NCBI GenBank assembly: GCA_963815115.1
Contig: CAWFFN010000005.1
Coordinates: forward strand, 1,737,077 to 1,801,076
Direction: 5' to 3'
Length of the DNA stretch: 64,000 nucleotides
Source: an uncultured delta proteobacterium
GTDB taxonomy: Bacteria; Desulfobacterota; Binatia; DP-6
A program made the position numbers and the translations under genes. This document shows, piece after piece, positions 49,168-55,873 of the stretch (position 1 is its first letter; every line of letters starts with the position of its first letter). Below the pieces are notes generated by a model, which made no database searches, was not told where the DNA came from, and saw nothing but the letters and a program-made list of their open reading frames with translations.

Positions 49168-49183
49168 TGGCACGGCTACTGCT
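49168..49183 (+). promoter_or_regulatory. Sigma54 promoter of the cytochrome operon
   Basis: TGGCAC-GGCTA-CTGCT, GG-N10-GC, about 40 nt before the GGGAGG-preceded ATG at 49225. Confidence 0.6.
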
Positions 49184-49224
49184 GTTGAGCCAGTCCGGCG
49201 CCGGCCGGCGGAAGGGAGGGTGCA

Positions 49225-50600
49225 ATGGCCCGATTCCAAGTCGTCGCCGTCGTTGTACCGCCGCGTTGCTCGTCGTGCTCGGCGCGCCGGAGGCGCAGGC
49301 GGTCCCCAGCTTCGGGCGTCAGACGGGCCTGCCGTGCGAGGGGTGCCACTCGGGGGGATTCTTTCCCGAGCTGAACAATTTCGGGCGCATGTTCAAGATG
49401 AACGGCTACATCTGGAGCGCACACGAGGAGCAGTCGTACGAGCCGATGCCGCCCGTGTCCGCCGCGCAGAGCTGGTCGTACACGCACACCCAGAAGAGTC
49501 AGCCGGGCGTCTCCAACCTGCCGACCGTCCACTTCGCCTCGAGCGGCAACGACAACTTCTCCTATCCGCAGCAGGCCAACTTCTTCCTCGCCGGCCGCTA
49601 CTACGGGCGGCTGGGTGGTTTCCTCATGGGGACCTACAGCGGCGTCGACAACAAGTGGGTCATGGACAACGCGGACATCCGGCTCACCGACGTCCGCAGC
49701 TTCGGTGAGAAGCACACGCTCCTGTACGGGGCCACGTTCAACAACGGCCCGACCGTGCAGGACGCCTGGAACACGCTGCCCGCGTGGAGCCAGCTGATCG
49801 GGTCCGAGGTGGCCCCCGGGCCCGCCGCGTCTCCCAGCATCAGCAACCTGATCTCGCAGGTGGCAGGCGTCGGCGCCTATGCCTTCTGGGACAACTTCCT
49901 CTACGCCGAGGTCACCCCGTACCTCTCCGGGAGGTCCGGCGCGTTCAGCTTCCTCACCGCGGGCAACCCGAAGGAGGTCATCACCAACGGCGTCTCGCCC
50001 TACTGGCGTATCGTGCTCTACAAGAACAAGGGGAGTCACTCGTTCTCGCTGGGTCACGTCGGCCTCTACGACAAAGTGTATCAAGCCGGCTCCCACGGCC
50101 CGACCAACAGCTTCCTCGATCTCGGCGCCGACATCCAGTACCAGTGGAACGCCAAGCCGAACTTCGTGACCTTCCGGACGGCGTTCATCTGGGAAAACCA
50201 GGGCGCTGTCTGCCGCCCAGGCGGCGGGCGCCGCCACGCGGGGCTCGGCCGACCTCCACACCGTGCAGATGTGGATGTCGTACTACTACTACAACCTCGC
50301 CGGCGTCACGTTCAGCCTCTTCGATATCGCGGGCTCGCGCGACTCCCGCCTCTACGCTCCCGACCCGTAGGCGGCAGTCGAACCGGGAGCCCGAACACCC
50401 TGGGCGGGTTCGTGCAGCTGAACGTGCTGCCGTTCTCGCAGTGGTTCGATCTCAAGTGGCCCGCTCTCCCGATGACGCAGCTCGCGTTGCAGTACGCGTT
50501 CTACTTCAAGTTCAACGGCGCGCAATCGAACTACGACGGCTTCGGTCGCAATGCGTGGGACAACAACACGCTCTACCTGCTCGCCTGGACACCGTGGTGA
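49225..50600 (+). CDS. cyc2: Cyc2-like monoheme cytochrome c / beta-barrel porin fusion (indels near 49255 and 50205-50365)
   Basis: Signal peptide ending AQA, AVPSFGRQTGLPCEGCH, PELNNFGRMFKMNGY; alternating aromatic beta-strands; C-terminal aromatic residue. Confidence 0.8.
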
Positions 50601-50616
50601 CGGAAGGAGACGAAGG

Positions 50617-50966
50617 ATGCGATCGATTGGATGTGCGGTCCTGCTGCTGGTGGCGACCGGATTGCCCGTGAGCGCGGCGGATATCGCCGCCGCCAAGAAG
50701 GATTTCGTCCGCTTCTGCGCCAAGTGCCACGGCACCGACGGCAAAGGCGACGGGCCGCAGGCCGACGCGCTCGCGACCAAGCCGCGCGACTTCACCGATT
50801 GTGCGCGCATGAAGGCCATCTCGGACGACACGCTCTTCAAGGCCATCAAGGAGGGCGGGGAGGCGGCCCACCTGAGCAAGGACATGCAGCCGTGGAAGGA
50901 CGGCATCGACGACGACGAAATCCACGGCCTCGTCGCGTACGTGCGCAGCCTTCTGCAGCAAGTTAG
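50617..50966 (+). CDS. Periplasmic monoheme cytochrome c
   Basis: Signal peptide; FCAKCHG.DGKGDGP, PRDFT, distal MQPW; end blurred by an indel. Confidence 0.85.
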
Positions 50967-52945: not shown

Positions 52946-53410
52946 GGGCCGTCGCGGGCTTCCTGCGATTCCTGGGCAAGGGATCGGTCGTCGCTCGCCT
53001 TCCTGATCCAGATCGCCGCGGCGGCCCGCGCCTTCGTGCCGAACGTCCTGTACGAGCCCTCGCGCCGGTTCAAGCTTCGCAAGCCGAAGGATTACCCGCC
53101 AGGGGGTGACCTTCGACGCCGATCATCGCCTGTTCGTGATCCGCGACGAGGACGACTTCCACGTCATCTCGAGCGTCTGCACCCACCTCGGGTGCACGGT
53201 GCAGTGGCGGCGGACGAGCGCCGGATTCGACTGCCCCTGCCATGGCAGCCGGTTCCGGGAGGATGGCACGGTGATCGCCGGACCCGCGCCCCGTCCCCTC
53301 GAGTGGTACGCCGTAGCGCTCTCGCCCGACGGCTACCTGGAGGTCGATACCGACGAGCAGGTGGCCCGGGGCTTCCGCCTCAGCGCCACCACCCGCACGC
53401 GGATGACCGA
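52942..53410 (+). CDS. Rieske 2Fe-2S subunit of a Rieske/cytochrome b complex (indels)
   Basis: CTHLGC, FDCPCHGS, GPAPRPL; RRxFL Tat-like start if one indel is corrected. Confidence 0.88.
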
Positions 53411-54720
53411 TCCGCGAGCGGCTGCAGAGCCCTCTGGCGCGGATCGGTCTGGACGTGGGCGCCGGAGAGCGAACGCGAAGCGGGCGAGGCGATCGTCCGC
53501 AACCTGTGGCTGCACTGGTTTCCCAACAAGGTCGCGATCGCGAGCGCCAGCTGGAGCTACTCGCTCTGGCTCGGCACGGCGGCCGCGTCGCTGTTCCTGA
53601 TCCTGCTCGTCACCGGGGTGCTGTTGATGTTCTTCTACGTGCCGTCGGTCGAGCGCGCATACTGGAGCATGAAGGACCTACGACTTCGCGGTCAGCTTCG
53701 GGTGGCTGCTGCGCAATCAGCATCGCTGGGCGGCGCATCTGATGGTGGGCACGACGTTCCTCCACATGGCGCGCGTCTTCTTCACCGGCGCGTACCGGGG
53801 CCCTCGCGCGCTCAACTGGCTCGTCGGCGTCGCGCTCCTGCTGGCGACGCTGCTGCTCTCCTTCACCGGGCTACCTGCTGCCCTGGGACCAGCTCGCCTT
53901 CTGGGCAGTGACCGTCGGCACCAACATCGCCCGCGAGGCACCGCTGGCGGCGTGCACGGATCCGCTTCCTCCTGCTGGGCGGGACGGAGATCGGCCAGGC
54001 GACGCTGCTTCGGTTCTACGTGCTGCACGTGTTCGTGCTGCCCGTGGTCGTGCTGCTGCTGTTCGCCTACCACATGTGGCGGATCCGGAAGGACGGCGGA
54101 CTCGCGGCCGTCGAGCCGATCGCGCGAGCGCACGAGCGCCCGCATGGCGCCGCCGTCGCCCTCGAAGAGCTACTCGATCTTCGGCGTCACGCCCGGCACC
54201 ACCGTCCAGACACTCTCCACCGACCGCGCTCGAGGAAGAGGACGTGGCGTTCTCCTCGCCCGAGCTGGTGCGGCGGATCATGCTGGTGTTCCTACTCGTC
54301 TTCAATGTGACGCTGCTCGCTGAGCGTCCTCTTCGACGCGCCCCTCGAGCAGGCCGCCAATCCCGCCGTCACCCCGAACCCGGCGAAGGCTCCCTGGTAC
54401 TTCCTCTGGCTGCAGGAGCTGGTCGCGAGCACGACGGTCCGCATCGGCGGCTTCACGGTGAGCGGCGGGTTCATCGGCGGCATCCTGGTGCCGGGGATCC
54501 TGCTGCTCCTGGCATCCGCCTGGCCATTCCTCGATCGCACCCCGGCCGAGCACCGAGGGCATCTGGTTCGCGGCGCAGCGGCGGCGACAGAATCTCCTCT
54601 TCGCGCTGATCGCGCTCGGCATCGTCGCGCTGATCCTTCTCAGCATGTACTGCCGCGGTCCCTCCTGGGGCTTGCTACTGGCCCTGGCAAGCGTGGCCGC
54701 GGCCCCCGACGAGCCTGTGA
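53403..54720 (+). CDS. Cytochrome b (N-terminal plus subunit-IV-like domains; indels hide whether one or two genes)
   Basis: [59 protein letters not shown]. Confidence 0.88.
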
Positions 54721-54723
54721 GAC

Positions 54724-55873
54724 GTGCGAGACCCCTTCTCCCGCTTCGAGTCGCGAGACTTCCCTGTCGCTCGTCGTGCTCTCGCTGGTCTTCTTCGGGC
54801 TGGTCGTCGCCGCCGTGGTCCGCGAAGAGCGGAGCGAGTGGCGGCCGATCCAGGTCCGCTTTCGGGACGCGCTGGAGCAGCACGGACAGGTGCGTGCCGC
54901 GCGCGCCTTCACCCCCGGCGTGCGCCAGCTCTGGCTCCCCGAGCTCGGCCGCGTCGACCGCTGTGTCACCTGCCATCTCGGCTACGAGTGCGGCGGGAAC
55001 GTCTTGCCCGCGAGCCGGCAGCTGCCGCTCGCGCCGCATCCCGGCGCTGCCCTACCTCGATGCGCATCCGTTCACCGAGTTCGGCTGCACGGCCTGCCAC
55101 GGTGGCCAGGGGTTCGCGACCACGGCGAGAGCGGCGCACGGATGAAGTCGCAGGATTGGGAGGACCCGTTGCTCGACGGCAACGCTCGCCGAGCGTGACG
55201 GGTTCAGCGCCGCGGAGCTGATGCAGGTGCGCTGCAACGGATGCCACCGTCGACGACGAGTCCACGCCGGGCATGGAGATCGATCGATCGGGGGAAGGAC
55301 GCTCGTTCCGGAAGAACAAGTGCCTGGTCTGCCACCGTGGTGGAGGACGGGGCGGCCTGGAAGCGCTCCGGAGCTCACGCTACGTCGGTGATAAGAATCC
55401 GGAGCTCTTCGACTTCACCCACGTGGACGGGACCGCGGACGGTCTTCAACTGGCACGTGCGGCACCTGATACGCGCGGGTGAGGTGAGTGCCGGGAACGA
55501 CGATGCCTGACTTCGATTTCGAACCCGAGGAGGCGCGCGCCCTTGCCCTGCTACTGCGTGAGCTGGCGGCCGCGAGAGCTTTCCGCCGCGCTATCGTCCC
55601 GCGCCCCGCTGCGGTCGCCGCGGCCGGCGAGCCGAAGACGCCGCGCCAGCCGTCAGCCGATGCCGCAGGTCGCCGGGCGCGGAGGCCGGCCGAGACGGTC
55701 TTTCGTCGACGCGCGGCTGCGACAGCTGCCACGGGGTCGGGACGCCGGTACAGTGATCGGCCCGGATCTGAAGGGTGTGGGCACACCGCCGGGACGCCGA
55801 CTGGCTGCGGCGCTGGCTTGCGGACCCGGCCGTTATGCTCCGCGCCTACCCCGATCTGTCAGAGCTGGCCGGC
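54724..55873 (+). CDS. Membrane-anchored multiheme cytochrome c (at least 5 hemes), ending at IS256
   Basis: N-terminal TM; CVTCH 54962, CTACH 55086, CNGCH 55233, CLVCH 55321, CDSCH 55718 across shifted frames. Confidence 0.8.

Follow-up and report, generated by a model that had tools for sequence, protein, structure and literature searches.

What would a Cyc2-like cytochrome-porin, a protein of the outer membrane, do in one operon with a Rieske/cytochrome b complex and a flavoprotein that uses NAD(P) (nicotinamide adenine dinucleotide or its phosphate)? This question is raised by a 64,000-nucleotide stretch of DNA from an uncultured delta proteobacterium of the Binatia (contig CAWFFN010000005.1, positions 1,737,077 to 1,801,076 of the forward strand), which we call the window. 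A preliminary description, made from the letters of the window, had proposed an electron conduit from the outer membrane to NAD(P). We compared the operon with related genomes, metagenome loci, protein families and solved structures. Judged from gene order and motifs, the conserved partner of the complex is an outer-membrane porin with a haem, fused or split, and not Cyc2 as such. We put at roughly 45% the probability that the products of the operon form a redox chain across the cell envelope, centred on a Rieske/cytochrome b complex of the anammox type, which would bifurcate quinol electrons and have its outward path via a haem-porin or an oxidase.

The six genes all lie on the plus strand, at about 49225 to 55921 of the window, and their order is that of an uninterrupted operon in the relative G017 (locus L011). 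Ungapped tblastn searches with the G017 proteins as queries matched the window frames to the G017 operon residue by residue. The features of the operon, each gene with its clean ortholog in L011, are as follows.

49168..49183, plus strand: sigma-54 type -24/-12 element TGGCACGGCTACTGCT, 41 nucleotides before ATG 49225.
49225..50600, plus strand: Cyc2-family fused monohaem cytochrome-porin, about 457 amino acids, 68% identical to the G017 ortholog (L011 5590-7008).
50617..50966, plus strand: periplasmic monohaem class-I cytochrome c with a signal peptide, about 115 amino acids, 75% identical to the G017 ortholog (L011 7044-7388).
50990..52945, plus strand: NfnB/GltD-like iron-sulfur flavoprotein for FAD (flavin adenine dinucleotide) and NAD(P), about 640 amino acids (L011 7401-9323).
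52939..53405 (approximate, frame switches), plus strand: Rieske [2Fe-2S] protein with the motifs CTHLGC and CPCHGSRF (L011 9319-9780).
53405..54720 (approximate), plus strand: cytochrome b, a b6-type N-terminal part fused to a subunit-IV-like part, about 435 amino acids (L011 9780-11084).
54718..55921, plus strand: membrane-anchored pentahaem cytochrome c, a tetrahaem core with a C-terminal class-I domain (L011 11084-12292).

In L011 the genes follow one another with gaps of 33 and 10 nucleotides and then with overlaps of 8, 4, and 4 nucleotides. The preliminary description had named these same six kinds of gene, and all six were confirmed by the colinear G017 operon together with Pfam and NCBIfam matches. 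Its position for the Cyc2-like gene needed one correction: the gene is there, and its start is ATG 49225 rather than 49167/49168, where the sigma-54-like site (49168-49183) lies. In the clean orthologs, the 115-amino-acid protein matched Cytochrom_C and Cytochrome_CBB3. The 641-amino-acid flavoprotein matched Fer4_20 and Pyr_redox_2 and has two C-terminal 4Fe-4S motifs; it is made up of an N-terminal 2x[4Fe-4S] domain, a Rossmann fold with GxGxxG, and a C-terminal 2x[4Fe-4S] ferredoxin domain. By eye it has no signal peptide or transmembrane segment and is probably cytoplasmic. The third protein of the module matched the Rieske family and has a twin-arginine-like N-terminal anchor, and Cytochrome_B and Cytochrom_B_C both matched the single 435-amino-acid cytochrome b chain. 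Among 18 aligned cytochromes b, His106, His120, His207, and His222 were invariant, as was the N-terminal His37; we take the 106/120 and 207/222 spacing to fit the b6-type pattern. The last protein has class-I and c7-like cytochrome domains. The at least five haems expected of it were borne out by five CxxCH motifs in the ortholog alignment, and five are also visible in the window frames of the gene.

By gene neighbourhood, the five genes that follow the Cyc2-like gene are a conserved Binatia module. In a metagenome scan with the multihaem cytochrome as query (80 loci), the flavoprotein, Rieske, cytochrome b, and multihaem cytochrome c genes were contiguous in 46 of the 46 loci showing the flavoprotein gene, and most of the other 34 contigs end before the position of that gene. 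The flavoprotein gene of G017 lies directly before the Rieske gene and overlaps it. What stands in front of the module was tallied for the 36 modules with a flavoprotein at least 60% identical to that of G017 and at least 1.2 kb of upstream sequence. Contigs that were too short were dropped from this tally, in which the kin counted are not independent and some split-porin loci are near-identical. An outer-membrane gene came first in 34 of the 36 modules, and the tally was as follows.

Cyc2-like gene in front, 5 of 36: the window, G017 (its metagenome twin L118 counted once), G007 (divergent), L047, and L119.
Split porin and small cytochrome c in front, 29 of 36.
Neither in front, 2 of 36: G028 and L147.

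The split porin is a haem-less protein of about 480 to 530 amino acids with a signal peptide, an N-terminal coiled coil, and a C-terminal ...GF. It carries no haem motif, 5 of 14 members gave weak Porin_O_P matches (best E value 3.7e-5), and NCBIfam returned coiled-coil noise only. The weak Porin_O_P matches, the signal peptide, and the C-terminal Phe hint at a barrel fold. Its partner is a monohaem cytochrome c of about 97 amino acids with the pattern CxQCH...MHMR. This pair was found in L130-L194 and L105 (for example, L148:3996-5570 and L131:5562-5852) and in the Binatia genome G040. A profile of the split porin had no detectable homology to the Cyc2-like profile (hhalign probability, 0.3%). 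Together, the split porin and its small cytochrome c may form an analogue of Cyc2 in two pieces.

The history of the two kinds of partner was read from two trees. A FastTree phylogeny of the flavoprotein, rooted on paralogues, gave ((G028, L047) 0.99, ((G007, L123, G017) 1.0, porin clade 0.75) 0.999). In a tree of 82 Cyc2-like proteins, the clade of G017, G007, L119, and the window (support, 1.0) joined L047 only at the midpoint root. The two Cyc2 lineages are far apart while their modules are not sisters in the flavoprotein tree, which suggests that an outer-membrane partner has been retained or replaced more than once. Two distant Cyc2 lineages and an unrelated porin-cytochrome pair hold the same place before the same module. 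This repeated outer-membrane partner is the strongest argument that the complex may work with an outer-membrane haem protein. L047 has a further gene (L047:5654-6193) between its Cyc2-like gene and its cytochrome c gene. The 179-amino-acid product combines a membrane anchor with a coiled coil and a small C-terminal domain, and it has no counterpart in the window operon.

The Cyc2-like form of the operon is rare among relatives. We searched 41 relatives of the source genome, including 4 of the same genus, and found some match to the Cyc2-like protein in 12. Close full-length matches occurred only in G017 and G007; the match in G016 is cut by a contig end, and that in G009 has 39% identity. The flavoprotein was present at an E value of <=1e-60 in 10 of the 41 relatives. 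The four same-genus genomes gave no match to the Cyc2-like protein and no flavoprotein at that threshold. Of the linkage put forward in the preliminary description, an outer-membrane gene before the module stood the comparison and Cyc2 itself as its regular occupant did not.

Beyond close relatives, we examined 80 loci of a species-representative genome collection that encode the Cyc2-like family. Flavoprotein and Rieske genes were found beside the Cyc2-like gene in three loci, all Binatia. Four further loci, from Melioribacteraceae, Ignavibacteriaceae, Bacteroidetes, and Acidobacteriota, have Rieske and cytochrome b genes there without the flavoprotein gene; in the Melioribacteraceae and Ignavibacteriaceae the order is Cyc2-like, cytochrome c, Rieske, and cytochrome b fused to a dihaem c. 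A monohaem cytochrome c alone adjoins the Cyc2-like gene in 10 others. The flavoprotein-Rieske module was found in none of five Cyc2-like-bearing genomes of other phyla (Thermodesulfovibrionales, a deltaproteobacterium, Acidobacteriota, Gemmatimonadales, and Methylomirabilis), in which three weaker GltD-like matches had no adjoining Rieske or cytochrome b gene. Two of the loci without the flavoprotein are worth recording in their own right. The Melioribacteraceae locus (L055:9971-14685) has a Cyc2-like gene and a monohaem c gene directly before the genes for Rieske and the cytochrome b-dihaem c fusion, and the Ignavibacteriaceae locus (L085:5224-14406) has two tandem Cyc2-like/monohaem c pairs and a reaction-centre-type cytochrome in that place.

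Is the first gene a Cyc2? The family has been defined by a signal peptide, a single CXXCH preceded by AXPXFAR[Q/K][T/Y] and followed by PXL, a length of at least 365 residues, and a 16-strand porin like OprO and OprP (Keffer et al. 2021, PMC8406198), and the motif before the haem site is said there to be unique to Cyc2. The preliminary description had read the first product as a cytochrome-porin with the motifs PSFGRQTG-CEGCH-PEL, and these are present: the window encodes the quoted motif AVPSFGRQTGLPCEGCHSGGFFPEL. The longer form of the motif is AVPSFGRQT in the window and in the near ortholog P0003, with G replacing A at one place, and AVPSFARQT in G017, L119, and L047; the G017 protein continues with CDACH...PEL, and G007 was not matched by the stricter motif pattern. 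Each of these proteins has one CxxCH (CEGCH in the window), as do 115 of 120 listed Cyc2-like homologues, of which 96 carry P.F[AGS]R[QK][TY]. PEL follows in the window, G017, G007, and L119 with five residues between His and Pro, and LEL takes its place in L047. A signal peptide was judged by eye, and the proteins are 445 to 473 amino acids long.

The claim that this product is a beta-barrel was supported by modelling. An AlphaFold2 model of the G017 ortholog, built from a 15-sequence alignment, has 16 long strands at moderate confidence (predicted local distance difference test [pLDDT], 62.6; predicted template modelling score [pTM], 0.65), and a Foldseek search of the PDB with this model returned outer-membrane barrels only, with OprP (2o4v) at rank 20. 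The ESM Atlas's own model has a pTM of 0.83, and the nearest cluster with any Pfam family has Porin_O_P in 20% of its members. No Pfam or NCBIfam family matched the protein itself, and searching PDB sequences with the Cyc2-like profile yielded no match at an E value of 1 or less. The family is large (4946 of 8000 scored candidates at an E value of <=0.001), and a C-terminal block, ...NYDGFGRNASDNNTLYLLxW, is strongly conserved in it.

On its motifs and length and on the modelled barrel, the first gene has the published Cyc2 sequence and fold hallmarks that we examined. With the Cyc2 of Acidithiobacillus ferrooxidans, Cyc2 PV-1 of Mariprofundus, and Cyt572 of Leptospirillum (PMC8406198) it shares the signal peptide, the single N-terminal CxxCH, an AxPxFAR[Q/K][T/Y]-type motif before the haem site and PEL after it (in about 457 amino acids here), and a barrel predicted to have 16 strands and to lie in the outer membrane, with structural matches that include OprP; as in Cyc2 systems, a monohaem cytochrome c gene adjoins. 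It differs in the window glycine that replaces the alanine of FAR and in the position of PEL, which is 5 residues after the His here and 4 in PMC8406198. The family around the window protein also includes heterotrophs such as Burkholderia lata and Paraburkholderia kururiensis (Burkholderia and Paraburkholderia matches have about 40% identity), and the gene is linked to a Rieske/cytochrome b/NAD(P) complex and not to rusticyanin/cox or to cyc1 alone. Burkholderia homologues are mentioned in the Cyc2 data set of PMC8406198, where the Cluster 3-type homologs are those of most uncertain function. The Burkholderia-type relatives fit the broad, functionally uncertain part of the Cyc2 family.

The likeness of the Rieske/cytochrome b/flavoprotein module to complexes of anammox bacteria, noted in the preliminary description, was strengthened by comparison with solved structures. 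The best solved matches of the Rieske ortholog were 9rk4 (E value, 9e-27) and 9rk3 (8e-25), with the next match at 3e-19. These two entries are Kuste4569 and Kustd1480, respectively, the Rieske subunits of Kuenenia stuttgartiensis according to a table in PMC12954380. The residue pair after CPCHG is Ser/Phe, the same as in Kustd1480. For the flavoprotein, the best solved relatives were NfnA (9n5u) and NfnABC (9bov/9bp5), enzymes of the bifurcating type, and 9bp5 is the entry that the anammox authors used to place iron-sulfur clusters in Kuste4570 (PMC12954380). Both Kuenenia complexes carry a putative NAD(P) oxidoreductase and multihaem cytochromes, and in their models an N-terminal histidine is predicted to ligate an additional haem b (PMC12954380). 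The conserved His37 of our cytochrome b recalls that modelled ligand, a resemblance between unaligned proteins that we take as a lead only.

Set beside the Kuenenia clusters Kustd1480-1485 and Kuste4569-4574 as described in PMC12954380, the Binatia module shares a Rieske protein and a b6-like cytochrome b with a subunit-IV-like part in one cluster, a multihaem cytochrome c that replaces cytochrome f/c1, and an NfnB-like NAD(P) oxidoreductase, and the Kuenenia Rieske protein is its closest relative among solved structures. Cytochrome b and subunit IV are fused here, unlike in Kuenenia, and the multihaem subunit is a tetra- or pentahaem protein rather than a hexa- or octahaem one, without an HAO-like subunit (PMC12954380). 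The host here is an aerobic soil bacterium with an outer membrane, and the operon includes an outer-membrane haem-porin or a porin with a small cytochrome.

The module is also related to the Ext cluster of Geobacter, and by its profile scores it is not a member. The cytochrome b matched the NCBIfam model ExtP with 253 bits (E value, 2e-75; cut-off, 290) and ExtQ with 78.8 bits (4e-22; cut-off, 150), and ExtS gave 21.2 bits (cut-off, 100), all under their cut-offs. The extHIJKLMNOPQS cluster of Geobacter sulfurreducens (PMC5877670) likewise combines, in a conserved cluster, a porin weakly resembling phosphate-selective porins, a small protein of about 100 amino acids, c-type cytochromes, a Rieske protein (ExtO), cytochrome b (ExtP), a membrane partner (ExtQ), and a tetrahaem cytochrome (ExtS). 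As described there, it has no NAD(P) flavoprotein and contains 10- and 12-haem cytochromes, a rhodanese, and a selenoprotein; the Binatia porins, for their part, match no NCBIfam model. A third comparison is with the rus and petI operons of A. ferrooxidans (PMC10654088), which also provide an outer-membrane Cyc2, periplasmic carriers, and a Rieske/cytochrome b complex, the latter dedicated to moving iron-derived electrons towards NAD(P). According to the same source these genes lie in two operons, the bc complex has no built-in flavoprotein, and the uphill path is a reversed bc1 complex with NADH dehydrogenase, driven by the proton-motive force.

The proposed sigma-54 type promoter is weak in the window alone and is backed by related loci. 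The window site has one mismatch to TGGCAC-N5-TTGCW and is not significant by itself, as the window has 24 matches with two or fewer mismatches against 17.7 expected. In 25 loci, the 350 nucleotides that precede the first outer-membrane gene were scanned for GG/GC-anchored matches with two or fewer mismatches. A site of this type (the GGCAC-N5-TTGCT element) was found in 16 of the 25, 27 to 72 nucleotides before the start, and most of the sites read GGGCACAAATGTTGCT; the background was 80 sites in 987,522 bases, or 1 per 12.3 kb. The window site gains weight because it is conserved in related loci, and the source genome encodes RpoN. Of the five loci of the Cyc2 type, two have the site, the window and L119; none was found upstream in G017. 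These matches support a sigma-54 promoter for this type of operon and make one plausible for the window. A second sigma-54-like site, TGGCATCGCTCTTGCT, lies at 48987-49002 of the window on the minus strand, with one mismatch and in the opposite direction, about 28 nucleotides before a possible ATG (48958) of a rubrerythrin-like gene. With two opposed sites, the 165-nucleotide spacer may be a divergent sigma-54 control region.

How would such an operon move electrons? The predicted membrane core comprises the Rieske protein, a b6-like cytochrome b, and an anchored tetra- or pentahaem cytochrome c, encoded next to the NfnB/GltD-like gene wherever the metagenome loci show the latter. The scheme that we favour is modelled on the published anammox scheme (PMC12954380). 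Quinol would be oxidised at a Qo-type site of the Rieske/cytochrome b core and its two electrons split. The low-potential electron would pass through the b haems, the iron-sulfur clusters, and FAD to reduce NAD(P)+ in the cytoplasm, and the high-potential electron would pass through the Rieske protein and the multihaem subunit to the monohaem cytochrome c. From there it could leave through a terminal oxidase, or the Cyc2-type haem-porin could pass it, at the cell surface, to an oxidant in solution, for example chelated Fe(III). This wiring could also operate in reverse, with Fe(II) and NAD(P)H reducing quinone.

Energetics bear on the direction. With menaquinol at about -70 mV (the value given in PMC12954380) as donor, the acceptor must by our arithmetic lie above roughly +180 mV. 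From cytochrome c (about +250 mV) to NAD(P)+ (-320 mV), electrons would have to go about 570 mV uphill and towards the negative side of the membrane, which the complex alone could not drive; an uptake reading would therefore need external quinol as the bifurcating donor, on the scheme of PMC12954380. The self-contained module for electron uptake with reverse electron transport, one of the functions suggested in the preliminary description, is thus thermodynamically unlikely. An outward direction is not without precedent, since PMC10715153 cites a role for one Cyc2 isoform in the reduction of Fe(III) by acidithiobacilli. A six-frame family search of the source genome found at least four haem-copper oxidase loci and two other cytochrome b loci, which makes the operon complex an extra one in an aerobic respirer.

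Several observations weigh against a bifurcating chain with an outer-membrane exit. Besides the two modules with neither kind of outer-membrane gene, all seven paralogous modules (41 to 53% identity) with upstream sequence have no outer-membrane gene in front, and the Cyc2-like gene of G007 is divergently transcribed. L196:1-3800 has genes for a porin, a small cytochrome, cytochrome c, Rieske, cytochrome b, and a multihaem c, with no flavoprotein gene between those for cytochrome c and Rieske. For the Kuenenia complexes themselves, bifurcation of quinol electrons to NAD(P)+ and a high-potential acceptor is proposed and not shown in PMC12954380. Members of the Cyc2 family are predicted to act on dissolved iron only, and the activity verified for them is the oxidation of Fe(II) rather than a reduction (PMC8406198). 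The pentahaem gene of the window is, moreover, truncated, as detailed below.

Electrons might instead flow inward, with the haem-porin oxidising dissolved Fe(II) or another reduced metal, the electrons reaching the Rieske protein by way of the monohaem and pentahaem cytochromes, and the complex either confurcating them with electrons of NAD(P)H to reduce quinone or simply feeding cytochrome c oxidases. The verified Cyc2 members are Fe(II) oxidases, the N-terminal motif is the one held to be unique to the family (PMC8406198), and a cytochrome c beside cyc2 is the usual arrangement in iron oxidisers (PMC10715153), one that we saw again in the 10 loci with a monohaem cytochrome c alone; the several haem-copper oxidases would suit this flow as well. 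Confurcation, on the other hand, would spend NAD(P)H on lifting iron electrons to quinone with no obvious energetic gain, and the Cyc2 homologs of the Cluster 3 type are those whose function is least certain (PMC8406198). A six-frame search found no RuBisCO large subunit in the source genome, which is 100% complete by markers, so that, with other CO2 pathways outside the search, the genome does not point to an autotrophic iron oxidiser. We regard inward flow as somewhat unlikely. The outer-membrane protein and the complex might also merely share a sigma-54 regulon for low oxygen or stress and work separately, the porin serving solute or metal passage or detoxification and the complex exchanging electrons only with soluble cytochromes and terminal oxidases. 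The neighbourhood is of a stress type (KatG, universal stress proteins, a CBS protein, and the rubrerythrin-like gene), the split porin lacks a haem motif and has only weak Porin_O_P matches, and ExtI, the porin of the comparable Geobacter cluster, is not needed for Fe(III) citrate reduction (PMC5877670). Yet three outer-membrane solutions, unrelated to one another, occupy one and the same position in the operon, each bringing a haem in the same or an adjacent protein, which argues for electron transfer rather than general permeability, and the operon-tight gene spacing in G017 also speaks against separate work. Shared regulation without shared wiring appears unlikely to us.

The remaining question is whether the window's copy is intact. 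The source genome (6.9 Mb in 12 contigs) carries the operon with a reading frame that changes about 38 to 40 times across 6.7 kb, as traced with the G017 proteins: 3 times in the Cyc2-like gene (near 49255, 50190, and 50365), about 14 times in the flavoprotein gene, twice in the Rieske gene, about 7 times in the cytochrome b gene, and at least 12 times in the last gene. If these frameshifts were real, the genes would be pseudogenes and the operon would be decaying in this genome. Decay would agree with the number of frame switches, with the element that clips the pentahaem gene (below), with the failure to find the operon in the four same-genus genomes, and with a G+C content of 0.64 to 0.66 over 49.5 to 51 kb against 0.70 to 0.72 in the flanks. 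Other evidence contradicts it. Residue identity to the orthologs holds at 70 to 95% within frames, and unrelated window genes, those for KatG and an acyl-AMP ligase, are frameshifted likewise; the catalase-peroxidase gene at 40370-42294, with two Peroxidase domains, is divided over two frames. Contigs from four soil-metagenome runs of three studies, which are 90 to 99% alike to the window and represent related populations rather than the same strain, lack single window letters at 12 listed places and at 83 further ones. At least 6 of the 12 listed places (51704, 52253, 53683, 53868, 54220, and 54546) lie within 6 bases of a frame switch. Because the short-read soil contigs leave out single bases there, we read the apparent frameshifts as mostly spurious extra bases of a long-read assembly, and an assembly in 12 contigs fits long reads. 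Decay of the whole operon is very unlikely on this evidence.

One lesion looks real. Homology of the pentahaem gene to its orthologs stops after '...AYPDL..SWPA' near 55875. The final ~27 codons are absent; in the orthologs they encode the fifth haem domain's IVMPNQ methionine region. The gene seems to have lost them to an IS256-type insertion sequence (IS) element, the features of which are as follows.

55880..57271 (boundaries approximate), minus strand: insertion element of the IS256/Mutator family (PF00872, 1e-19).
About 55929-57203, minus strand: transposase gene of the element, frameshifted in the assembly.
55902-55915 and 57258-57271: possible terminal inverted repeats of the element.

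The insertion alone looks like a true lesion, and with the pentahaem gene apparently clipped, the favoured redox chain may be impaired in this genome. The missing 3' end was not found beyond the neighbouring element. In one soil contig, a match to 55763-55857 is followed by 1369 letters that differ from the window, which fits an allele free of the element elsewhere. An attempt to define the ends of the element from other genomic copies failed, since the genome has a single full copy, with related fragments that begin at about 55880. An empty site was not recovered in the same-genus genomes, where the flanks are non-syntenic, and the upstream flank is duplicated within the source genome.

Full-text literature searches that did not extend to supplements turned up no account of an operon in which a Cyc2 or porin gene accompanies a Rieske/cytochrome b complex with a flavoprotein. 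New here are a Binatia operon that lacks a cupredoxin, three outer-membrane parts that may be interchangeable, a conserved sigma-54 site, and a noisy window copy clipped by an insertion. Through the operon, the quinone and NAD(P)H pools of the cell could be connected to extracellular oxidants, iron among them. In its boldest form, which we think doubtful, the proposal is that Binatia possess a quinol-driven bifurcating NAD(P)+ reductase with a dedicated outer-membrane haem-porin as its exit or entry, so that surface redox chemistry would be coupled to NAD(P)H without complex I or the proton-motive force and the fused and split terminals could replace each other. If this were true, NAD(P)H formation would be tied directly to redox reactions of dissolved iron or another oxidant at the surface of the cell, and one machine could take either terminal, the fused Cyc2 or the split porin and its cytochrome c. 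Two open problems meet at this locus, namely the function of Cyc2 homologues outside the classical iron oxidisers and the unproven bifurcation by Rieske/cytochrome b complexes, and the setting is aerobic soil bacteria rather than slow-growing anammox bacteria. The proposal predicts a quinol:NAD(P)+ activity that depends on oxidised cytochrome, iron- or sigma-54-dependent expression, and outer-membrane terminals that can be exchanged. If the wiring is real, surveys that read every cyc2 match as 'iron oxidation' will need revision.

Two further observations concern the DNA before the operon. The 6.5 kb at 42600-49100 of the window have copies of 86 to 97% identity close to the start of the contig that holds the window (C5:12208-26051) and at the beginning of contig C6 (C6:3-767), which looks like a segmental duplication; the stretch covers genes for a universal stress protein, an acyl-AMP ligase/acyltransferase, a phosphoribosyltransferase, a small cytochrome c, and the rubrerythrin-like protein. 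At 47876-48337, on the minus strand, the window encodes a further monohaem cytochrome c that is 40% identical to the cytochrome c of the operon.

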